Shown here in pieces: positions 4,679-16,390 of a stretch of DNA of 64,000 nucleotides. The notes beneath the pieces were generated by a model that saw only the letters and a program-made list of their open reading frames with translations, was not told the origin of the DNA and made no database searches. A program made the position numbers and the translations under genes. How positions within the stretch are numbered: the first letter of the stretch is position 1; each line of letters opens with the position of its first letter. This DNA comes from Escherichia coli (GTDB lineage Bacteria; Pseudomonadota; Gammaproteobacteria; Enterobacterales; Enterobacteriaceae), in NCBI RefSeq assembly GCF_030384885.1, contig NZ_CP128613.1; one strand, written 5' to 3'.

Positions 4679-6130
4679 TTATTTATCAGTAGTCAAAACG
4701 GTAGCTTGCGGGACGGACGTACCGAAACGGTTTCCGACCAGGAAAGCCAGCAAACTTAGCAGTAACGAGGGCACGATAGGGTGGAAGCCCAGGTACTGAA
4801 TATTCAGGGTCGCAAGTACGGCATACAGCACGCCGCCAACGATCATCGCACTTAGCGCGCCTTTGGCGTTAGCGCGTTCCCAGTAAAGACCCAGCACCAG
4901 CGGCCACAGGAAGACAGCTTCCAGCCCACCGAAGGCCAGCAAATTCAGCCAGATGATCATTTCAGGCGGCTTCCATGCAGCAAGCAGCAGCAACGCGCCG
5001 AGAATCAACGTAATCACCGCCGACATCCGCTTCAGGCGCGTCTCGTTTTGCATTTGATCCGGACGGATATTCAGATAGAGATCTTTAATGATCGTAGCGG
5101 AACTTTGCAGCAATTGGGCGTTGATCGTCGACATGATCGCAGCCATAGGAGCTGCAAGGAAGATCCCGGCAGCAAATGGTGGCAATACTTTTACCATCAA
5201 CGTCGGGATCACCAGGTCCGGTACGGTGAGATCGGGGATCACTGCACGACCTAATGCTCCGGCCAGGTGCATACCGAACATCAGGATTGCGACCACAATC
5301 GTACCGATGATGATCCCCCGATGTACGGCTTTGCTGTCTTTATAAGAGATACAGCGCACCGCAGTATGCGGCAGGCCAATCACGCCAAAACACACCAGCA
5401 CCCAGAACGACGTCATAAACGCAGGTGACAGAATATCGTCAGCGCCTTGTGGCGTAACCAGTTGCGGATCGATGGTTTGCAGCGTCTCTACTGCATTGCT
5501 TAAGCCGCCAGCAGCATGGACCACGCCAATAAGCAGCACAATGGTGCCAATCAGCATCACCAGCCCTTGCATGGTGTCGTTCAGCACGCTGGCGCGAAAG
5601 CCGCCAAAGGCGGTGTAGAGCGCAATGCTGATGCCAAAAATCAGCAAACCTGTTTCATAAGGGATACCCGCCGCGGTTTCCAGCAGGCGCGCACCGCCGA
5701 TAAACTGCACGGTCATCGCACCAACGAACGCAACCAGCAAACTCAAACTCGCCAGCCACACCAGCAGGCGACTCTGGTAGCGGGCAAACAGCATATCGTT
5801 CAGCGTCACCGCATTGTAGCGGCGCGCGAGAATCGCGAACTTCTTGCCGAGAATACCGAGCGAAAGCCAGACCGCAGGTAGCTGAATCATTGCCAGCAAT
5901 ACCCAACCCAGGCCGTATTTATAAGCAGCTCCTGGCCCGCCGATAAACGAACTGGCACTGATATAGGTCGCGGTGAGCGTCATCGCCAGCACAATACCGC
6001 CCATAGAACGGCTGCCGAGGAAATACTCATTGAGGAAGGTGCCGGTGTTCCGTTTACGCATTGCATAAACTGAAATCCCGAACACCACCACCAGATAGGC
6101 GACCAGCGGTAGAATCACTTCAAGCTGCAT
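4679..6130 (-). CDS. panF: sodium/pantothenate symporter
   Basis: ORF 4679..6136; multi-TM SSS-family transporter; start taken at [13 protein letters not shown] to give 483 aa. Confidence 0.9.
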
Positions 6131-6380
6131 CGTCATCCTCCAGCGGGATATCGCGATAGATAAATTTCACCATCGCCCAGCACAGTCCAATAAACAGCAG
6201 CGGCGTCAGGATGCAAGCCATCTCAAACCAGCGTGGAAAGCCGGTAAAACCGGAGGTAACGCCAGGTAAGTAAGCGGCTACTAACCATACCGCCAGATAC
6301 AAAAGGGTCAGCCCCAGCGCCCAGCGCGCCTCTTTATGGGCCTGAACAAAACGAGTGTCCACGGAAGGGGTCCTCCTCAT
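6120..6380 (-). CDS. yhdT: small membrane protein YhdT (DUF997)
   Basis: Small two-TM ORF overlapping the panF start; an alternative GTG start at 6362 would give 80 aa. Confidence 0.75.
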   Translation of the reverse strand: MRRTPSVDTRFVQAHKEARWALGLTLLYLAVWLVAAYLPGVTSGFTGFPRWFEMACILTPLLFIGLCWAMVKFIYRDIPLEDDDAA

Positions 6381-6454
6381 GGGGGGATACGAGAAACGGG
6401 CAATTCTACGGCAACTCTTCAGGCAGGGAAAATAATCTGACAGAAAATTGCCGT

Positions 6455-7411
6455 TCAGTGCTCCTGCAAAAAGTCTTCAATGTCAGCCAGTGAGGATACC
6501 CCTTCCATCGGACCTTGCCGCATTACCGCGAGCGCGCCGCTGGCATTTGCATATTGCAGCGCCTTGTGTGCCGGGATACCGGATAAGAAAAGAGTGACAA
6601 ACGTTGCGCCAAAGCAGTCGCCTGCACCCGTTGGATCGATTATTTCGATATCGTGGCCTGCAACATGCTTGGCGTGTAATGTTCCGTTTTTAAGCTTGTA
6701 ATAGCTGGCCCCACGCTGGGCGCGTTTTATCGCCACATGTTTTACGCCGCCGTGGAGAAGATCGCTAACAATCTGTTCTTCTGACAGATTTTTGTGACGC
6801 GCGAAGAAAGGGAGTTCGCTTTCGCTGGGGATAAAAATATCCGTATATTCAATCAAATAATCGAGAGCCTGCGCCATTTCAGGAATACTCAGCATCTCTT
6901 TGCGAATATTGGGATCGAAAGAAACGGTGCCGCCAGCCGATTTGATCGTCGTTATTGCTTTACGCATGACATCGATCATGCGAAATGAGAACAATGATGA
7001 GCCCACAATATGCAGATGGTTACACTGTTTTAGCAGATCCTTATCAATGTGCTCGGCAGTAAACAAACCGCAGGCGCTGTTAGGGATATTAAAGACGAAA
7101 TCCCGCTGCTGTGGATTTTGATAACTTACGAACGCCGTACCTGTCACGGCATTGTTCATCACGTGGATCCCATCGGTAATGACACCTTCATGACGAAGAC
7201 GTTCTACAATGAGTCGGCCAAAATCATCATTACCAACACATCCGAAGAAGATGGCCCGATGGGACAGTTTTGCCACTTGAGCTGCAAAAATTGCAGGCGC
7301 ACCGCTAGGAAATGGCCCGATAAACTCCCCCGGCTGAGTGAATTTTTGATGTGGGTTGCGGGACAAAAACTCGGCCAGCAATTCGCCCATAGCGCAGATA
7401 GTTATTGTCAC
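6455..7411 (-). CDS. pfkB-family carbohydrate kinase (island kinase 1)
   Basis: ORF 6455..7465; GTG start at 7409-7411 preferred because it has a GAGAGGGG Shine-Dalgarno and aligns with the paralog at 12944..13906; ribokinase/pfkB signature DPTGAGDCFG near the C-terminus. Confidence 0.8.
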   Translation of the reverse strand: MTITICAMGELLAEFLSRNPHQKFTQPGEFIGPFPSGAPAIFAAQVAKLSHRAIFFGCVGNDDFGRLIVERLRHEGVITDGIHVMNNAVTGTAFVSYQNPQQRDFVFNIPNSACGLFTAEHIDKDLLKQCNHLHIVGSSLFSFRMIDVMRKAITTIKSAGGTVSFDPNIRKEMLSIPEMAQALDYLIEYTDIFIPSESELPFFARHKNLSEEQIVSDLLHGGVKHVAIKRAQRGASYYKLKNGTLHAKHVAGHDIEIIDPTGAGDCFGATFVTLFLSGIPAHKALQYANASGALAVMRQGPMEGVSSLADIEDFLQEH

Positions 7412-7421
7412 AAAACCCCTC

Positions 7422-8252
7422 TCATTCCTGAAGCCTTTCGCGATTGGACCAGGTAAAGCACTCATTACTGGTATAAAGGATAACGAAATCAGCCGACTGC
7501 AATTGTTGCTGATATTGTTCGTTAATGCTGCGGCTGACGATCACATTTTCTGCCTGATGCAAATGTCCAATGGCTGCCGTTGATGGCGCAGGATCGGCGG
7601 CAACGATAACTGTCTTATTCTGGGCATTATCGAAACAGAGCTGCCAGGCAGCGGCAAGTCTGGGAACGTTGATATTTAAAGTACCATCAGCATCCAGATG
7701 GCTGATTTCCAGAATGCTGTGTGTAATGGTGAAATGCTGAAGTGCCTGTTCGAGCGGTTTTCCGGCCAGTGCGGTGTCGGGGCGCAGCATTTCACTGCCA
7801 GCCAGTATTATTTCGCCATCAATAAACTGATTTGCCAGCAGCGCATGTTCGGGATCGTTGGTGATCAGACGCAGTTTTTTCACTTCGCTGAGCAATGGAA
7901 TGATCTTACGGCAGATTGTCCCATGTCCAAGAAATAGCGTGTCACGATCCCGAATTAACCGTGCGCAATGTCGTGCTATTTCCATTTGTTGTGCCAGAGA
8001 CAATGGCGCGATCGGTTGTATCGCTTCTGGTTCAGAGGAGAGTGGTGTCGCAATAGCACCGCCAAATGATCGCTTTAAATATCCCTGTTGCTCCAGATAA
8101 CTGAGATCGCCGCGGATCGTCACGCCAGAGACACCAAGTTGCGCAGATAAGTCATCAACTTTGATTTCACCCTGGGCGGCAACAATTTCTGCAATTTTTA
8201 ATCTGCGTTTCAGTAGGTTAGACGATTTTCTCGGCACGTTAACACTCTTCAT
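7422..8252 (-). CDS. DeoR-family transcriptional regulator
   Basis: 276 aa; N-terminal DeoR-type HTH region (RRLKIAEIVAAQGEIKVDDLSAQLGVSGVTIRGDLSYLEQQGYLKRSFGGA) followed by a DeoR-C sugar-phosphate-binding domain. Confidence 0.85.
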   Translation of the reverse strand: MKSVNVPRKSSNLLKRRLKIAEIVAAQGEIKVDDLSAQLGVSGVTIRGDLSYLEQQGYLKRSFGGAIATPLSSEPEAIQPIAPLSLAQQMEIARHCARLIRDRDTLFLGHGTICRKIIPLLSEVKKLRLITNDPEHALLANQFIDGEIILAGSEMLRPDTALAGKPLEQALQHFTITHSILEISHLDADGTLNINVPRLAAAWQLCFDNAQNKTVIVAADPAPSTAAIGHLHQAENVIVSRSINEQYQQQLQSADFVILYTSNECFTWSNRERLQE

Positions 8253-8420
8253 TGGCCTTTAATGCGTAACACTATAGCCCCTTGTATTTTTCTTTGAAAG
8301 TTACCCTTCAATAATATCGACAATTCGAAAATAAAAGCATAGGGCAAAAATTGCAGCAAAAATAGCTTAATGCATTGAAAATAAATGAATATTTCCATAT
8401 CTGTCCAAAGGCATCATTGG

Positions 8421-9447
<1,027 letters not shown>

Positions 9448-9481
9448 GACGTTGTACCCTACAAAACAATGAGGATTGTTT

Positions 9482-10372
9482 ATGAAAAATATTAAATTAC
9501 TTGGTTCCGCTATGATGGTGAGCCTGGCATTGTTCTCGCAAAGTTCATTGGCAAAAGAGTATAAAATTGGAGCTTCATTATTAACACAGCAACACCCTTT
9601 TTATATCGACCTCGCAAATGCAATGAAAGAAGAGGCGAAAAAAGACAATGTCAATTTAAGTGTCTCTATTGCCAATCAGGATTTAAACAAACAGCTTTCT
9701 GATGTTGAGGATTTTATTACTAAAAAGGTAGATGCCATTATTATCTCTCCAGTCGATTCGAAAGGTGTCCAGGCAGCGATAATTAAAGCCGATAAGGCTG
9801 GTATTCCCGTTATCACCGTTGACGTTGCCGCGGAAGGCGTTCCGGTCGTATCGCATGTTGCGACCGATAATTACGCGGGAGGCGTTGAAGCTGGTAAGTT
9901 AATGGGCAAACTTTTGAATGGTAAAGGTACTGTAGCCATTATTTCTTATCCTGCACTACAATCGGTGGTTGCGCGCGTTGATGGTTTTAAGAAAGGGTTA
10001 AGCGAGACACCGGATATTAAAATTGTTGCTGAACAGCTAGGTATAACGCGGGCTGAAGCGTTAACGACTGCGCAAAACATTATGCAGGCCAACGCCAACC
10101 TGAATGGTCTGTTTGGCTTTGGTGATGATGCGGCGTTGGCAGCGGTTATCGCAGCGAAATCTGCGCATAACGACAACATCAAAATCATTGGTTTTGACGG
10201 CATGAAAGAAGCGCGTGATGCCGTTGACAGTGAAAAAACGTTTGCGGCCGTGATTCGGCAATATCCCTATCAAATGGGTGCTAAAGCCATTGATGCTGCT
10301 GTTGATCACCTCAATGGTAAACCGGTAGAAAAAATGATCCCGGTACAACCCGGCGTTTATACAGGTAAATAA
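9482..10372 (+). CDS. periplasmic sugar-binding protein of ABC transporter (PBP1, CUT2 family)
   Basis: ORF 9476..10372; ATG at 9482 has a GAGGA Shine-Dalgarno; signal peptide MKNIKLLGSAMMVSLALFSQSSLA followed by a ribose-binding-protein-like fold. Confidence 0.85.
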   Translation: MKNIKLLGSAMMVSLALFSQSSLAKEYKIGASLLTQQHPFYIDLANAMKEEAKKDNVNLSVSIANQDLNKQLSDVEDFITKKVDAIIISPVDSKGVQAAIIKADKAGIPVITVDVAAEGVPVVSHVATDNYAGGVEAGKLMGKLLNGKGTVAIISYPALQSVVARVDGFKKGLSETPDIKIVAEQLGITRAEALTTAQNIMQANANLNGLFGFGDDAALAAVIAAKSAHNDNIKIIGFDGMKEARDAVDSEKTFAAVIRQYPYQMGAKAIDAAVDHLNGKPVEKMIPVQPGVYTGK

Positions 10373-10387
10373 TAAACATCTTCATTT

Positions 10388-10418
10388 CACAACAAAACGT
10401 TATCGACGTTTTGTTGTG
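10388..10418 (+). other. inter-cistronic stem-loop between binding-protein and ATPase genes
   Basis: Perfect 12 bp inverted repeat cacaacaaaacg / cgttttgttgtg with a 7 nt loop, 15 bp downstream of the binding-protein stop. Confidence 0.45.
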
Positions 10419-10432
10419 ACACCGAGGTCATT

Positions 10433-11932
10433 ATGACGGATGTTATTCTTGATGTTTCGCATATTGCGAAGACATTTGGTCATGTTCAGGCATTAAAAGA
10501 TATTACCCTCTCTTTACGTAAAGGGCGGGTGCATACTTTATTAGGCGAGAATGGTGCCGGTAAATCGACATTAATGAAAATACTCGCCGGTGTTTATCCG
10601 CCAACCCAGGGAACGATAACACTACGTGGTGAAACCATCACCATTAATAATCCGCAGCATTCTCGCCAGTTAGGGATTGCGATTATTTTTCAGGAACTGA
10701 GCCTGAGTAATAATATGACCGTGGCGGAAAATATTTATGCCAATAATGAACCGCGACGTTTTGGCATTATTAACGATAAAAAAATGCTCGCAGATTGCCA
10801 GAATCTCCTCGCGGAACTGGGCATCCCACTGGATCCGCTGGAAATGGTCGGCAATATGTCGATGGCACATAGGCAACTGGTAGAAATTGCCAAAGCCTTA
10901 AGCTATGCAGCAGATGTCGTGATTATGGATGAACCGACATCTTCGCTAAGTGATAATGAAGCAGAGATTCTGTTTAACATTATTGAGAAATTAAAGCAGC
11001 GAGGTTGTGCGGTTATTTATATCTCTCATCGCATGGATGAAATTATGCGGATTTCAGATGATATTTCGGTGATCCGCGACGGTGAGTATATCGCTACGCA
11101 TGAAAAGAAAAACAGTGATATCCAGCATTTGATTGCCCAAATGGTTGGTCGGGAAATGAAAAATATTTGGCCAGCACGTCTTGGGGAAAAGCCGGATGAA
11201 AATGTTCCTGCAAAACTGGAAGTAAAAAACCTTTCCCATCCTTCGCTTTTTAAAGAGGTCAGTTTCGCTGTGCGTCCGGGGGAAGTCCTCGGATTTTTTG
11301 GCCTGGTGGGGGCCGGGCGTTCCGATGTGATGAAGGCGCTATTTGGCCTCGTTTCGTATCACGGGACTGTGTTGATTGATGGTAAGGAAGTCAGGATCGC
11401 TAATCCCAAACAGGCTATTGATCATGGCATTGCTTTTGTGACCGAAAACCGCAAGGAAGAAGGGTTAGTGCTGATGCACGACGTCAATATGAACACGCAC
11501 CATGTGGCGTTTCAATATAACGCTTCGCGGATGGGACTCATCAATCACCGACAAGAAGAGGCGAAGACGCTGCAATCTATTGCCAGAATGAACACTAAAG
11601 TGAGTTCAGTACATCAGGCAGTGGGAGCGCTGAGCGGCGGTAATCAACAGAAAATCGTGTTATCCAAGTGGCTGGAGAAAACTCCGCGTATTTTATTGCT
11701 CGATGAGCCAACGCGCGGAGTGGATGTCGGCGCAAAATTTGAAATCTATAACGTGATACGTCAACTGGCTGCGGCAGGGACAGCAATTATTCTGGTGTCC
11801 TCTGAACTGCCAGAGGTCATGGCACTTAGCGATCGTCTGGTGGTAATGCGTAATAAAACGATTGCCGATATTTATTCATGTGAAAATTTAACGCAGACAC
11901 AGGTAATGACCGCTGCAACAGGAGTACGTTAA
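10433..11932 (+). CDS. sugar ABC transporter ATP-binding protein (duplicated NBD, RbsA/AraG-like)
   Basis: 499 aa; two Walker A motifs (GENGAGKST, GLVGAGRS), ABC signature LSGGNQQK and Walker B LLLDEPT. Confidence 0.9.
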   Translation: MTDVILDVSHIAKTFGHVQALKDITLSLRKGRVHTLLGENGAGKSTLMKILAGVYPPTQGTITLRGETITINNPQHSRQLGIAIIFQELSLSNNMTVAENIYANNEPRRFGIINDKKMLADCQNLLAELGIPLDPLEMVGNMSMAHRQLVEIAKALSYAADVVIMDEPTSSLSDNEAEILFNIIEKLKQRGCAVIYISHRMDEIMRISDDISVIRDGEYIATHEKKNSDIQHLIAQMVGREMKNIWPARLGEKPDENVPAKLEVKNLSHPSLFKEVSFAVRPGEVLGFFGLVGAGRSDVMKALFGLVSYHGTVLIDGKEVRIANPKQAIDHGIAFVTENRKEEGLVLMHDVNMNTHHVAFQYNASRMGLINHRQEEAKTLQSIARMNTKVSSVHQAVGALSGGNQQKIVLSKWLEKTPRILLLDEPTRGVDVGAKFEIYNVIRQLAAAGTAIILVSSELPEVMALSDRLVVMRNKTIADIYSCENLTQTQVMTAATGVR

Positions 11933-12922
11933 ATGACAGAGAAAACTCTTGCCAGTCCGAAACCTTCGGAAATTCCCATTGCAAATAATTTTAAAAAAGT
12001 CTTCAGGCAATATGGCGGTATCCTCAGTGGAATGGTGGTGTTAATCATTCTGTTCAGTTTTATTAATGACAGTTTTTTTACTGCCAATAACATTACTAAT
12101 ATTATTCTTCAGGTTTCGATAATTGCAATTACCGCCTATGGAATGACTTATGTACTTTTGCTTGGCGATATTGATTTATCGGTCGGTTCAACCATTGCAT
12201 TGATTGGCACATTTGCTGCGCTTGGGGCTTCATGGGGAATTCCATTTATTTTATTGGTCCCATTATCCATTATTGCAGCCCTGGCTTTGGGGATGATAAA
12301 TGGTGGCTTGACGGCTATAGCGGGTATCCCTTCGTTTATTGTCACCGTTGCTACTATGGGGATCTTCCGTGGTATCGCTTATATAGTGACCGATGGTATG
12401 CCCATCATGATTAAAGATGATGCCTTTCTGGCGCTGGGGAATGGAGAATTTCTCTATATACCTATTCCTATCTGGATATTAATCATCTTATTGCTGATTA
12501 ACCACTTCATTCTTACTAAAACAACCTTTGGACGAAAAATTTATATCACTGGTGGTAATAAAGAAGCGGCAGTTTATTCAGGGATAAATGTCACCCGCTT
12601 GAAAATTAAAGTCTTTATGATTACAGCCGTGCTGGCAGGTATCAGCGGGATGATCCTCGCCTCACGCCTCTATTCCGGGCAACCGAATTCCGCGTTGAGC
12701 TACGAACTGGATGCTATTGCCGCGGCTGTACTGGGAGGCACCAGCCTGAACGGCGGCTATGGAACCGTGGTGGGGACGGTGATCGGCGCATTAACCATCG
12801 GCGTTATTAATAATGGCATGAACTTAATGAATGTTCCCTATTTTTACCAGATGGTGGTTAAAGGATTAGTCATTCTTGTAGCCGTTTATTTTGACGTAAG
12901 AAATAAAAGAAAACGCAGCTAA
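11933..12922 (+). CDS. sugar ABC transporter permease (RbsC-like)
   Basis: 329 aa polytopic membrane protein; ATG immediately after the ATPase stop codon. Confidence 0.85.
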   Translation: MTEKTLASPKPSEIPIANNFKKVFRQYGGILSGMVVLIILFSFINDSFFTANNITNIILQVSIIAITAYGMTYVLLLGDIDLSVGSTIALIGTFAALGASWGIPFILLVPLSIIAALALGMINGGLTAIAGIPSFIVTVATMGIFRGIAYIVTDGMPIMIKDDAFLALGNGEFLYIPIPIWILIILLLINHFILTKTTFGRKIYITGGNKEAAVYSGINVTRLKIKVFMITAVLAGISGMILASRLYSGQPNSALSYELDAIAAAVLGGTSLNGGYGTVVGTVIGALTIGVINNGMNLMNVPYFYQMVVKGLVILVAVYFDVRNKRKRS

Positions 12923-12943
12923 TCATTTCAAGGAATTAATCAT

Positions 12944-13906
12944 ATGAGTAAGGTCTTCACAATTGGAGAAATTCTGGTTGAAATTATGGCGAGTAAAATC
13001 GGCCAGCCATTTGATCAACCAGGTATCTGGAACGGCCCTTATCCCAGTGGTGCGCCCGCTATTTTTATCGACCAGGTGACACGTCTTGGCGTTCCGTGCG
13101 GCATCATTAGCTGTGTGGGGAATGATGGCTTTGGTGATATTAATATACATCGTCTGGCTGCTGACGGTGTGGATATCAGGGGGATTTCAGTCTTACCTCT
13201 GGAAGCTACCGGGAGTGCCTTTGTTACTTATCATAACTCTGGCGATCGCGATTTTATTTTTAATATCAAGAATGCCGCTTGCGGTAAATTATCGGCGCAG
13301 CATGTTGATGAAAATATTCTGAAGGACTGTACCCATTTTCATATTATGGGTTCATCCCTGTTTTCATTCCATATGGTAGACGCAGTAAAAAAAGCAGTAA
13401 CCATCGTTAAAGCAAATGGTGGCGTTATTTCTTTCGACCCTAATATTCGTAAAGAGATGCTCGATATTCCAGAAATGCGTGACGCCCTCCACTTTGTTCT
13501 TGAGTTAACAGATATCTATATGCCCAGCGAGGGAGAAGTGTTGCTCTTGTCGCCACACTCGACACCGGAGCGTGCAATCGCTGGTTTTCTTGAAGAAGGT
13601 GTTAAAGAGGTGATTGTGAAGCGCGGCAATCAAGGTGCCAGTTACTACTCCGCGAATGAGCAGTTTCATGTTGAGAGCTATCCGGTGGAAGAAGTTGACC
13701 CGACCGGTGCGGGAGACTGCTTTGGTGGCGCGTGGATTGCCTGCCGCCAGCTAGGGTTTGACGCCCATCGGGCATTACAATATGCCAACGCCTGCGGTGC
13801 ACTGGCGGTAACCCGACGTGGCCCAATGGAGGGAACGTCTCGCCTTGCGGAAATCGAAGCGTTCATCCAGCGCCATGACATGTCCATTCGGGAAGCAGCA
13901 CAATGA
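12944..13906 (+). CDS. pfkB-family carbohydrate kinase (island kinase 2)
   Basis: 320 aa; N-terminal GEILVE motif and C-terminal DPTGAGDCFG; clear paralog of the kinase at 6455..7411. Confidence 0.85.
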   Translation: MSKVFTIGEILVEIMASKIGQPFDQPGIWNGPYPSGAPAIFIDQVTRLGVPCGIISCVGNDGFGDINIHRLAADGVDIRGISVLPLEATGSAFVTYHNSGDRDFIFNIKNAACGKLSAQHVDENILKDCTHFHIMGSSLFSFHMVDAVKKAVTIVKANGGVISFDPNIRKEMLDIPEMRDALHFVLELTDIYMPSEGEVLLLSPHSTPERAIAGFLEEGVKEVIVKRGNQGASYYSANEQFHVESYPVEEVDPTGAGDCFGGAWIACRQLGFDAHRALQYANACGALAVTRRGPMEGTSRLAEIEAFIQRHDMSIREAAQ

Positions 13907-14949
13907 AAAACGAAATTTGGTCGTGGATTGGCGATCTCTCGCAGGTTGCCGGAATTAAACACTATGAGTTATGTAGTGGCAGATCAAAGGGGACAGAAGC
14001 GTTTGATGTCCGTACTGGTGCGGGATTGGCATTTACGGTGGTAAAAGATCGCGCGCTGGATATTGCATGGGCCAGCTACAAGGACACTGCGCTCTCTTTT
14101 ATCACCCCCAACGGCATTGTCGCCCCCGCTTTTTTTGAGTCTCAGGGCAACGGGTTTTTACGTAGCTTCTACGCGGGGTTACTGACTACCTGCGGACTTA
14201 GCTACATTGGCACGCCCTGTGAGGATAACGGAGAAACGCTGGGATTACACGGACGTTTGGCTGCGACACCAGCGGAAGAGGTGGGATATCGCACAGAACG
14301 GACCGACGACGGCATTGAATTTGTCATCAATGGCAAATTACGGGAAACGCGATTGTTCGGTGAAAATCTGACGTTGGAAAGGACCATTCGCTGCCGCTAT
14401 GGCGAAAATGTGCTGCGCATTGAAGACAAGGTGACTAATCATGGTTTCACCCGCCAGCCGCTGCAAATTCTTTATCACTTTAATTACGGCTGGCCTTTAT
14501 TATCGCCACAGGCAGAAATCTTGCTGTCGGCTAAAAGCGTAACGCCACGAACCCCGCATGCGGCGGAAGGGTTAACCAGTCATCTGGAGATTTGTACCCC
14601 ACAGCCCGGTTTTGACGAGCAGGTTTACTATCTCACGTTGAATAGCGACAGTCAGGGGATGAGTAAAGTTGCGCTGGTGAACGCCGAACTGGGGTGGGGA
14701 ATTTACGAGAAATTCGACACCATGCAGCTACCCAACTTTATCCAGTGGAAAAATTTAGGCGCGGGTGAATATGTTATGGGGCTGGAGGTCAGCAATAGTT
14801 TTCCTGACGGTCGTGATAAAGAACGAGCGCAGGGGCGTCTGCCCTTTATAGAGCCAGGGGAAACAAAGACATACTGCTTTGAGCTGGGAATTGTTGATGG
14901 CGATGCTGAAATTAGCGCGTTGAAAGCGGAAATTGCAAGCTACCGTTAG
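13903..14949 (+). CDS. DUF4432-like / mutarotase-like protein of unknown function
   Basis: 348 aa; start overlaps the kinase 2 stop (ATGA); family assignment from recall only and tentative. Confidence 0.65.
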   Translation: MKNEIWSWIGDLSQVAGIKHYELCSGRSKGTEAFDVRTGAGLAFTVVKDRALDIAWASYKDTALSFITPNGIVAPAFFESQGNGFLRSFYAGLLTTCGLSYIGTPCEDNGETLGLHGRLAATPAEEVGYRTERTDDGIEFVINGKLRETRLFGENLTLERTIRCRYGENVLRIEDKVTNHGFTRQPLQILYHFNYGWPLLSPQAEILLSAKSVTPRTPHAAEGLTSHLEICTPQPGFDEQVYYLTLNSDSQGMSKVALVNAELGWGIYEKFDTMQLPNFIQWKNLGAGEYVMGLEVSNSFPDGRDKERAQGRLPFIEPGETKTYCFELGIVDGDAEISALKAEIASYR

Positions 14950-14965
14950 CTAACGGCAATAAAAA

Positions 14966-14992
14966 CGCCGGGCAGCGTTAACAGGCCCGGCG
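14966..14992 (-). terminator. Rho-independent terminator downstream of accC
   Basis: Hairpin cgccgggc-N11-gcccggcg; on the minus strand it is followed by a T run (tttttattgcc), appropriate for ending accBC. Confidence 0.5.
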
Positions 14993-15040
14993 TTGATTAC
15001 GTTCTTTGCTAAGCGCGATGAAAACACCGCGCGTCACAAA

Positions 15041-16390
15041 TTATTTTTCCTGAAGACCGAGTTTTTTCTCCAGATAGTGGATGTTAGTGCCACCATGCTG
15101 GAAGTTCTCGTCATTCATGATGCGGATCTGCAGATCAACGTTGGTTTTGATACCGTCGATGATCAGCTCCTGCAGCGCATTCTTCATGCGGGCAATCGCC
15201 ACGTCACGGTTTTCACCGTAGCAAATCAGCTTACCGATCATTGAGTCATAGTACGGCGGTACGGTGTAGCCCGCGTAGATATGAGACTCCCAACGCACGC
15301 CAAAACCGCCAGGTGCATGGAAACGGGTGATTTTGCCCGGACTTGGCAGGAAGGTGTTCGGATCTTCGGCGTTGATACGACATTCCACCGCATGGCCGCG
15401 AACGTGAACTTCTTCTTGCTTGATCGACAGCGGCTGACCGGCAGCGATACGCAGCTGTTCTTTGATCAGGTCAACGCCAGTGATCATTTCGGTAACCGGG
15501 TGTTCTACCTGAATACGGGTGTTCATTTCGATGAAATAGAACTCGCCGTTTTCGAACAGGAACTCGAAAGTACCCGCACCGCGATAGCCGATATCAACAC
15601 ACGCTTTAGCGCAACGTTCGCCGATGTAGCGACGCAGTTCCGGGGTAATGCCCGGTGCTGGCGCTTCTTCGACCACTTTCTGGTGGCGGCGCTGCATGGA
15701 GCAGTCACGTTCCGCCAGATAGATAGCGTTGCCCTGACCGTCAGCCAGTACCTGAATCTCGACGTGGCGAGGATTTTCCAGGTATTTCTCCATGTAAACC
15801 ATGTCGTTATTGAAAGCGGCTTTCGCTTCCGCACGGGTCATGGAGATGGATTGTGCCAGTTCAGCGTCGCCGCGTACTACACGCATACCACGACCGCCGC
15901 CGCCGCCGGAGGCTTTGATAATCACCGGGTAACCAATGCGTTTTGCAATGGCGCGGTTTTTATCCATATCGTCGCCCAGCGGGCCGTCAGAACCTGGTAC
16001 GCAAGGAACGCCCGCTTTTTTCATCGCGGCGATTGCGGATACTTTGTCACCCATCAGGCGAATGGTGTCTGCTTTCGGGCCGATGAAGATAAAGCCGGAG
16101 CGTTCAACCTGCTCGGCAAAATTGGCGTTCTCGGAGAGGAAGCCGTAACCCGGATGGATTGCTACTGCGCCGGTGATTTCAGCGGCGCTGATGATTGCCG
16201 GGATGTTCAGATAACTTTTTACTGACGGAGCAGGGCCGATACAGACCGTTTCATCTGCCAATAATACGTGTTTTAGATCGCGATCCGCGCTGGAGTGCAC
16301 AGCGACAGTCTTGATGCCCAGTTCTTTACAGGCACGAAGAATACGCAATGCAATCTCGCCGCGGTTGGCAATAACAATTTTATCCAGCAT
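15041..16390 (-). CDS. accC: biotin carboxylase subunit of acetyl-CoA carboxylase
   Basis: ORF 15041..16429; start taken at [27 protein letters not shown] to give 449 aa; ATP-grasp motifs present. Confidence 0.95.

Follow-up and report, generated by a model that had tools for sequence, protein, structure and literature searches.

A TagR-coupled pfkB kinase lineage beside the catabolic kinase of the D-tagatose island of Escherichia coli

Introduction

Why should one small sugar-utilisation locus keep two homologous sugar kinases, and what is left for the second of them to do? The question is raised by a 64,000-nucleotide stretch of Escherichia coli contig NZ_CP128613.1 (assembly GCF_030384885.1), here called the window, in which an original prediction made from the DNA letters had placed two paralogous pfkB kinases on opposite strands. 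Both genes exist, kinase 1 at 6455-7411 on the minus strand and kinase 2 at 12944-13906 on the plus strand. The region, an insertion between yhdT and accC, is the known island for D-tagatose utilisation, which was described in E. coli Nissle 1917 as an 8.5 kb island between the same two genes (Ha et al., 2022, iScience, PMC9720028) and whose genes were named tagK, tagR and tagYABCDE by Park et al. (2025, Microb Cell Fact, PMC12226905). Kinase 1 is tagK, which with tagR is divergent from tagYABCDE, and kinase 2 is tagD. The observation is real; the locus and the paralogy of its kinases are already in the literature, and the modest new content of this work is comparative. What is new here is that the regulator-linked kinase is a distinct, old lineage, invariably coupled to TagR in islands with an ATP-binding cassette (ABC) importer and in islands with a phosphotransferase system (PTS), and that TagR lacks the usual effector motif of the DeoR family.

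The published pathway runs from ABC import of tagatose through tagatose-6-phosphate (Tag-6-P) and, by PfkA, tagatose-1,6-bisphosphate to dihydroxyacetone phosphate (DHAP) plus glyceraldehyde 3-phosphate (G3P) (PMC9720028). The papers assign the formation of Tag-6-P from tagatose to TagD; free D-tagatose is imported by TagABC, and the bisphosphate is cleaved by TagY. Deletion of the six operon genes of Nissle, or an in-frame deletion of tagD, results in no growth on tagatose and no consumption of it, and K-12, B and W strains grow on tagatose when given tagYABCDE on a constitutive plasmid without kinase 1 (PMC9720028); tagR was absent from this experiment along with tagK. The plasmid-borne growth is lost in a pfkA mutant and kept in a pfkB mutant (PMC9720028). 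The host of that test was K-12 carrying tagYABCDE and no tagK, so that TagK is dispensable, which does not imply that it is unable to act on Tag-6-P. Tagatose induces the six operon genes (aldolase, ABC importer, kinase, epimerase) more than 40-fold, the first three more than 1000-fold, and the regulator-kinase pair only about 2-fold (PMC9720028), the transcription of tagRK in Nissle being nearly constant and low. The island has two transcription start sites only, as determined by differential RNA sequencing, and Park et al. (2025, PMC12226905) predicted the promoters Ptag and Preg, a CRP site and two operators. Repression of Ptag by TagR was shown through over-expression, and the published reporter work covers wild-type Nissle only (PMC12226905). 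Our literature searches on the regulator-linked kinase (STM3251, tagK, tagatose kinase with DeoR) returned nothing beyond these two Nissle papers.

Results

TagK and TagD are anciently separated lineages

In a BLASTP comparison the two kinases share 158 identities over 311 residues (51%, with 67% positives and an E value of 3e-116), a resemblance that is not due to chance. The pairwise alignment thus bears out the predicted homology; the identity of 51% had already been stated by Ha et al. (2022, PMC9720028). The segments that had been quoted as common to both proteins are present, with single-residue slips in the quotation: kinase 1 reads PFPSGAPAIF, GTAFVSY, VGSSLFSF and VSFDPNIRKEMLSIPEM, kinase 2 reads PYPSGAPAIF, GSAFVTY, MGSSLFSF and ISFDPNIRKEMLDIPEM, and CVGNDxFG and DPTGAGDCFG occur in both. 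Both carry the pfkB-family signature, consisting of DPTGAGDCFG with the catalytic Asp, FDPNIRKEM and PSE(S/G)E, in columns that are invariant or near-invariant in 95 relatives. Both also match many NCBIfam pfkB-family models (E values from 1e-10 to 1e-124) as well as solved pfkB kinases, and PF00294 is carried by cluster representatives 97-99% identical to them.

We sampled the neighbourhoods of five TagK homologues and then scanned one genome per species, which yielded 77 distinct loci, and mapped the island proteins together with the PTS proteins of K. pneumoniae onto all of them. Relatives of TagK that are 56-89% identical, and closer to it than TagD is, were found in Klebsiella, Yersinia, Serratia, Salmonella, Cedecea and Gilliamella. 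In a neighbour-joining tree, 95 kinases fell into a TagK type of 51 sequences and a TagD type of 44, with a bootstrap of 100/100 for the split; identity averaged 0.67 among TagK-type sequences and 0.71 among TagD-type sequences, compared with 0.53 between the types. The nearest outside relatives of TagD are the tagatose kinases of Burkholderiaceae (58-62% identical), whose ABC genes are 57-64% identical to tagABC. TagK and TagD are therefore anciently separated lineages, without a local duplication; a recent duplication within the cluster was considered and rejected in view of the 100/100 split and because TagD is nearer to the Burkholderiaceae kinases than to TagK.

TagK is adjacent to TagR in every locus in which it was found

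In 54 of 54 loci the TagK-type kinase gene directly follows a TagR-like gene of its own strand, which is upstream of it. The distance from the regulator stop to the kinase start ranges from -4 to 21 nt (median 9-10), with the Shine-Dalgarno sequence overlapping the regulator stop. This spacing suggests translational coupling, with both proteins made from one transcript, and tagR and tagK are apparently coupled in this way. In the window the gap between the two genes is 10 nt, and repressor and kinase are co-transcribed and divergent from the uptake operon. The operon membership that had been predicted was correct: kinase 1 follows the DeoR-family gene, and kinase 2 lies inside the aldolase-ABC-kinase-DUF4432 series. 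The two kinases have non-equivalent roles in two divergent transcription units, as was also predicted.

The spacing bears on the start of tagK as well. A GTG at 7411, giving a protein of 318 residues, is favoured over the ATG at 7390 of the RefSeq/PGAP annotation (6455-7390, 311 residues). A GAGGGG Shine-Dalgarno sequence lies 4 nt upstream of the GTG and overlaps the tagR stop, more than 50 TagK orthologues of 315-325 residues begin at the same aligned GTG or ATG, and with the shorter call a part of the first beta-strand is lost. The annotated start is probably seven codons short.

The TagR-TagK pair has two kinds of partner. The ABC-type partner (aldolase, ABC importer and TagD) is found in Escherichia, Enterobacter, Superficieibacter, Trabulsiella, Klebsiella spallanzanii, Yersinia, Serratia, Budvicia and an Erwinia metagenome-assembled genome, and we did not detect the aldolase in the ABC-type loci of K. 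spallanzanii and the Erwinia genome. The end of this operon varies, with DUF4432, a GatZ-like gene or nothing after tagD. The GatZ-like gene stands where E. coli has tagE in Serratia (our locus L016, 1066-2325) and Budvicia (L020, 1826-3088), and the Yersinia and Trabulsiella islands have neither gene after tagD. The PTS-type partner consists of an aldolase, a 1-phosphofructokinase (1-PFK)-type kinase, EIIBC and EIIA/HPr, and is found in K. pneumoniae, Salmonella, Kluyvera, Lelliottia, Buttiauxella, Citrobacter, Cedecea, Pluralibacter, Gilliamella, Orbus and Zophobihabitans, as well as in Izhakiella and Tatumella, where it is without an aldolase. ABC-linked and PTS-linked TagKs interleave in the tree. 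The pair was reported only in Enterobacterales by Ha et al. (2022), because ABC-type clusters alone were searched there.

One island departs from this pattern. In Enterobacter sp. BIGb0383 (L083, 2800-10942), at the same panF-side location, tagR and tagYABCD are present without tagK and without a detectable tagE.

TagK is under purifying selection, with and without an adjoining operon

Compared with a divergent Escherichia lineage, tagK has a ratio of nonsynonymous to synonymous substitution rates (dN/dS) of 0.057 at a dS of 0.43, and compared with Nissle the ratio is 0.10. The corresponding values for the divergent lineage and Nissle are 0.038 and 0.053 for tagD, 0.052 and 0.057 for tagY, and 0.10 and 0.074 for tagR. 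TagK is thus under strong purifying selection. The catalytic Asp is kept in 48 of the 51 TagK-type sequences, the exceptions being Superficieibacter (GAGG) and two Gilliamella lineages (GAGN and GATC).

In five Gilliamella loci (L043, L046, L048, L049 and L052, at about 9170-10975) we found a regulator-kinase pair and detected no tag catabolic operon adjoining it. The open reading frames of L043 and L052 show the nrdR-ribD / hemN site, which in other Gilliamella strains is the site of the PTS island. Several of these lone pairs read GAGDCFD for GAGDCFG, and GAGN and GATC are those of L049 and L052, respectively. Between L043 and L048 the dN/dS of both the regulator and the kinase gene is 0.07-0.08 at a dS of about 0.8, indicating that these two pairs are maintained. 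That the lone pairs are decaying remnants was accordingly rejected for L043 and L048; only L052 looks degraded.

Catalytic residues and family scores

The original prediction considered that one kinase might be catalytically dead. Judged by sequence, the catalytic residues are intact in both; all motifs being present, we rejected this possibility for the window. Its suggestion that the kinases are diverged enough to imply different specificities was not borne out by the conserved motifs. Across both lineages 58 alignment columns are invariant, including the G-E after strand 1, DPN, K171-E172, D259 and G262-A263, and R170 and the GD of GAGD are near-invariant across the 95 kinases. Only 10 positions are lineage-diagnostic, most of them hydrophobic swaps, plus R/K and H/E, and the alignment contains no new basic residue in TagK able to hold a substrate phosphate. 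In TagK numbering the ten positions are L11, F15, A43, F56, R150, F183, F203, H225, F271 and L274.

For both kinases the best-scoring NCBIfam model is TagKinase (NF049991), the D-tagatose kinase equivalog with a cutoff of 420 bits, which neither passes (TagD 414.2, TagK 347.7). It is passed by the TagD orthologues of Yersinia (427) and Caballeronia (488); overall, regulator-linked kinases score 348-379 bits and the TagD type 414-488. The role of TagD rests on the published deletion and not on this score. With the 1-PFK/tagatose-6-phosphate kinase models TIGR03168 and TIGR03828 (cutoffs 216 and 292), TagK scores 50.9 and 47.7 bits and TagD 46.0 and 41.6, below both cutoffs in each case, whereas the tagatose-1-phosphate (Tag-1-P) kinase of the K. 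pneumoniae island reaches about 311-312 bits with TIGR03828.

The protein of PDB entries 3IQ0 and 3K9E, deposited as an E. coli 'putative ribokinase II', is TagD (726 bits, residues 1-320). The two substitutions visible against the TagD of the window, A302M and A306T, are at positions where the Nissle TagD differs too. The entries carry a generic name and no functional assignment. They are also the best structural template for TagK (342 bits), for which the PDB holds no structure of its own.

TagR lacks the effector motif of the DeoR family

HTH_DeoR and DeoRC domains are present in the relatives of TagR. In LacR (D210/K213) and UlaR (D206/K209) an Asp-x-x-Lys motif is needed for the response to the phosphosugar inducer (PMC10991401). 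In the alignment TagR is without this motif, reading VAADP where UlaR has VDSSK and AgaR has TDSSK, and its relatives read ITHLP, VASRP and LPQRF. In TagR and all relatives examined, moreover, the G-S/T-T loop is degenerate and a C-terminal extension, YTNNEC(F/L)TWxN, is conserved; AlphaFold2 models this extension as a beta-hairpin within TagR itself. A PDB search with TagR gave no match at E <= 0.001. The general notion that DeoR repressors sense sugar phosphates, which would have supported an inducer-making kinase, was dropped for this reason, as the TagR family lacks the Asp/Lys pair.

Docking of the two proteins was modelled with AlphaFold2 on a single chain consisting of the TagR C-terminal domain, a GS linker and TagK, using 19 genome-paired sequences and no predicted aligned error. 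Both parts were well folded (mean predicted local distance difference test, pLDDT, 84.6), the predicted template-modelling score (pTM) was 0.61, and no confident docking was obtained.

The island in the window: genes, regulatory elements and distribution

In the window the eight genes of the island stand in the order and orientation known from Nissle, and the flanks are the same too, yhdT (6120-6380) on the left and accC (from 15041) on the right. On the minus strand, tagK is predicted to encode the regulator-coupled sugar kinase (97.5% amino acid identity to Nissle HW372_RS02435), and tagR (7422-8252, 98.9%) encodes a DeoR-family repressor whose NCBIfam DeoR-family matches are all below cutoff. 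The plus-strand operon begins with tagY (8593-9447, 97.2%), a GatY-like class II tagatose-1,6-bisphosphate aldolase (TIGR01858, 472 bits against a cutoff of 443.6). It continues with tagA (9482-10372, 98.3%), encoding the periplasmic sugar-binding protein, for which the RefSeq ATG start is given here and a TTG at 9476 is also open; tagB (10433-11932, 99.6%), encoding the sugar ABC transporter ATPase; tagC (11933-12922, 99.4%), encoding the permease; and tagD, encoding the D-tagatose kinase that makes Tag-6-P (99.4% identical to Nissle ECOLIN_RS18675/HW372_RS02465).

The start of tagE (13903-14949, 96.6%) lies within the tagD stop (ATGA); the gene encodes a DUF4432 protein of the aldose-1-epimerase family (PF14486, E 5e-104). 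TagD and TagE are fused in one NCBI record (P0122, 493 residues). A literature search on DUF4432 function returned nothing. In solution tagatose is mostly pyranose, and the substrate of a 6-kinase has to be in the furanose or open form; for this reason a tagatose mutarotase/pyranase is a plausible guess for TagE.

The published tagO1, tagO2, CRP site and Preg hexamers are all present between tagR and tagY. A consensus scan placed Preg, the promoter of tagRK, at 8271-8298 on the minus strand (-35 TTCAAA, 16 nt, -10 TATAGT), with hexamers identical to those published. On the plus strand, a predicted CRP site (TTCGA-N6-TCACG, 8479-8494) matches the prediction of Park et al. (2025), and the Ptag region follows at 8496-8522 with the published hexamers (-10 TAGTTT at 8517-8522); its -35 is TTTTTA in the window and TTTTTG in Nissle. 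tagO1 (8524-8542, plus strand) has one mismatch to the Nissle sequence, and tagO2 (8548-8566, minus strand) matches the published sequence exactly. The palindrome pattern TTTCAAARTGAAA has three matches in the 64 kb, against 0.37 expected, all of them within the intergenic stretch between tagR and tagY. A putative extra operator palindrome, TTTCAAAGTGAAA, with an overlapping copy, lies at 8421-8439, about 95 bp upstream of tagO1, and is described in neither the 2022 nor the 2025 Nissle paper. By its sequence it may be a third TagR site that allows looping.

The stretch 6300-15100 is a 100% nucleotide match to the chromosome of E. coli strain 2013C-4282, and 1419 of the 5426 complete genomes of E. 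coli carry at least 80% of it. A full-length tagK occurs in 1421 genomes, with one copy on a plasmid record. The window carries an allele different from that of Nissle: its tagK DNA is about 3% divergent from the common allele, and it is rare, with at least 99% identity in 3 of the 1421 genomes and about 96.8% in the remainder. The G+C content is 0.43-0.455 over 8-14 kb, compared with 0.52-0.55 in the bins that adjoin it, 4-6 kb and 14-16 kb.

Discussion

What, then, would the second kinase do? In the explanation that we favour, and that we think will probably prove right as a whole, the region is the published tagatose island, TagD is its catabolic kinase and TagK takes part in sensing linked to TagR. 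TagABC imports free D-tagatose, TagD is taken to make Tag-6-P, the host PfkA converts this to the bisphosphate and TagY yields DHAP and G3P. TagK would be catalytically active on a ketohexose, probably tagatose, without carrying the catabolic flux, and TagK and TagR together would form the always-on sensing half of the island. In the simplest version, TagK would make or clear the small-molecule ligand of TagR before the transporter and TagD are induced. The pairing of regulator and kinase through a swap of the uptake route, selection on the pair in loci without an adjoining operon, constant low expression and dispensability under a foreign promoter all fit a kinase that belongs to a sensing half. 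A bolder form of this explanation, which we regard as doubtful, is that TagR and TagK are a portable, self-contained two-gene sensing unit, in which an old paralogue of a catabolic kinase has been devoted to signalling rather than to flux; TagK would set the level of the TagR ligand or act on TagR directly, and enterobacteria would have plugged the unit into an ABC-type or a PTS-type pathway.

Several points weigh against this explanation, and a regulatory or priming role for TagK, taken by itself, is one that we propose tentatively, as something that may well fail. The substrate of TagK, its product and its link to TagR are read from gene context, and the conservation of the substrate pocket was judged from motifs rather than from coordinates. 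Since Nissle deleted for tagD neither uses nor consumes tagatose despite an intact tagK, the capacity of TagK as a tagatose kinase in vivo must be small at native expression. The missing Asp/Lys pair in the TagR family weakens the idea of a phosphorylated inducer, and a PTS already yields a phosphosugar, a possible inducer, so that a dedicated inducer-making kinase is not obviously needed beside one. The docking model is a weakly negative result. The BIGb0383 island indicates that TagK is naturally dispensable in at least one lineage, and in the otherwise complete ABC-type island of Superficieibacter electus the catalytic Asp of TagK is replaced by Gly (L012, 10001-10954), which may reflect an error in sequencing, decay at an early stage or a variant that is not catalytic.

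The alternative that survives best is plain redundancy, which we nevertheless consider unlikely. TagK would be a weakly expressed second D-tagatose 6-kinase without regulatory meaning, in a position after tagR that is historical, and would scavenge free tagatose that arises inside the cell, e.g., by dephosphorylation, by oxidation of galactitol or by isomerisation of galactose. The catalytic motifs and the 58 invariant columns that TagK has in common with the TagD type agree with this, as do the dispensability of TagK for growth once the operon is expressed and its absence from one natural island. A scavenging kinase would also be sensible beside a PTS; fructokinases accompany the PTS in sucrose regulons. 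However, redundancy leaves unexplained the strict adjacency of regulator and kinase in all 54 loci across a swapped uptake and catabolic module, and likewise the constraint on pairs without an adjoining catabolic operon, and TagK does not even partly rescue the tagD deletion.

Alternatively, TagD would make Tag-6-P and TagK would be a dedicated tagatose-6-phosphate 1-kinase, with PfkA substituting only where TagK is missing. This corresponds to the sequential phosphorylation of the original prediction, of which the route from ketose through ketose-6-phosphate and ketose-1,6-bisphosphate to trioses after ABC import was right (PMC9720028) and the placing of kinase 1 at the second step is not supported. 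Two phosphorylations are required and the island holds no other candidate for the second, the dependence on pfkA was seen in K-12 with tagYABCDE only, in which TagK was not present, and the pfkB-fold family includes phosphosugar enzymes such as ribose-1-phosphate kinases, LacC and Pfk-2. We do not give the second step to kinase 1 because the operon works without it and needs PfkA, and because it is barely induced, about 2-fold as against 40- to more than 1000-fold for the pathway genes. A further reason is that the lineage is conserved to the same degree next to PTS-type islands that stand alone (Gilliamella, Cedecea), and these make Tag-1-P and have their own 1-PFK-type kinase. The 51 bits of TagK against the 216-bit cutoff of the hexose-phosphate kinase subfamily point the same way, TagK resembling free-tagatose kinases and having no lineage-specific basic residues for a substrate phosphate. 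A sequential scheme with kinase 1 as its second step is thus unlikely, and that TagK is a dedicated second-step kinase seems to us quite improbable.

We give a similarly low weight to the possibility that TagK acts on another ketose (e.g., D-psicose, D-sorbose or D-fructose) from the same importer or from the cell, thereby widening the substrate range. Class II ketose-bisphosphate aldolases often discriminate little between stereoisomers. The long separation of the lineages (53% mean identity, 100/100 bootstrap), the scores of TagK-type proteins below the curated tagatose-kinase cutoff and a few lineage-diagnostic changes near motifs (P110, N289, and F271 for Y/W) would suit such a change of substrate. 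The diagnostic differences are few, however, most of them being hydrophobic swaps of a conservative kind, an enzyme for the catabolism of a second substrate should be encoded in the induced operon and not in the constitutive regulator operon, and the growth data point to no second substrate.

Least probable of all, and in our view very much so, is that TagK is a trigger enzyme that senses the sugar and controls TagR through protein contact, with catalysis secondary or dispensable, as in yeast, where Gal3, a galactokinase paralogue, controls Gal80: the spacing of the two genes, a TagR effector domain without the canonical sugar-phosphate-binding residues and the kept reading frames with a replaced catalytic Asp (GAGG, GAGN, GATC) would suit it, whereas 48 of 51 sequences retain that Asp, the fused-chain model has well-folded separate domains and no confident interface, the conserved TagR extension folds as a hairpin within TagR, and our literature searches found no bacterial precedent for a pfkB kinase in such a role.

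Comparison with related systems places the sensing explanation in a wider setting. The PTS-type islands of Salmonella, Klebsiella, Cedecea and Gilliamella (gatY-tagK-tagTH), of which the Salmonella version is the known "tag island" STM3251-STM3256, share with E. coli the core in which the kinase and regulator genes are divergent from the aldolase gene. Their TagK-type kinase is 56-61%, their TagR-type DeoR protein 38-43% and their GatY-like aldolase 66-72% identical to the E. coli proteins. They differ in that a tagatose PTS yields Tag-1-P and a 1-PFK-type kinase the bisphosphate, so that they have no Tag-6-P step, and they are without the ABC importer, TagD and DUF4432. The name TagK needs care here, as the literature on the PTS island uses it for the Tag-1-P kinase and Park et al. 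(2025) use it for the regulator-linked sugar kinase; these belong to unrelated subfamilies and stand side by side in PTS-type islands.

The ABC-type tagatose operons of Burkholderiaceae, Sinorhizobium and Agrobacterium, whose likeness was also noted by Ha et al. (2022, PMC9720028), resemble the other half of the E. coli island, with a DeoR regulator, an ABC importer 57-64% identical to TagABC and a TagD-type kinase that is 56-62% identical and passes the NCBIfam tagatose-kinase cutoff. Unlike E. coli, they have only one kinase gene, which shares its operon with the regulator gene, and they are without a gene of the TagK type. The place that DUF4432 has in E. coli, after the kinase, is taken by a GatZ-like gene, we detected no class II aldolase in these loci, and Tag-6-P is converted to fructose-6-phosphate by a Tag-6-P 4-epimerase (Ha et al., 2022, PMC9720028). 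From these sequence comparisons the E. coli island looks like a mosaic of an enterobacterial kinase-regulator-aldolase unit and an ABC-plus-kinase unit such as Burkholderiaceae and rhizobia have.

A functional parallel to the arrangement of tagRK is offered by lsrRK and lsrACDBFG, which serve autoinducer-2 uptake in E. coli and Salmonella: a repressor and a kinase are co-transcribed, divergent from an operon for an ABC importer and processing enzymes, and the product of the kinase is the inducer of the repressor. LsrK is an FGGY-family kinase and LsrR is of the SorC type, and the lsr system is without a second, catabolic kinase paralogue. The likeness is one of function only.

The tag island enables growth on D-tagatose, a food sweetener, for about a quarter of sequenced E. 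coli strains, mostly in the pathogen-rich B2 and F phylogroups, and it is under development as an inducible expression switch for the probiotic Nissle. If TagK shapes the signal sensed by TagR, it would determine the threshold and the dynamics of that switch, and such a role would explain why the regulator-kinase pair is found beside two unrelated uptake routes across Enterobacterales and Orbales.

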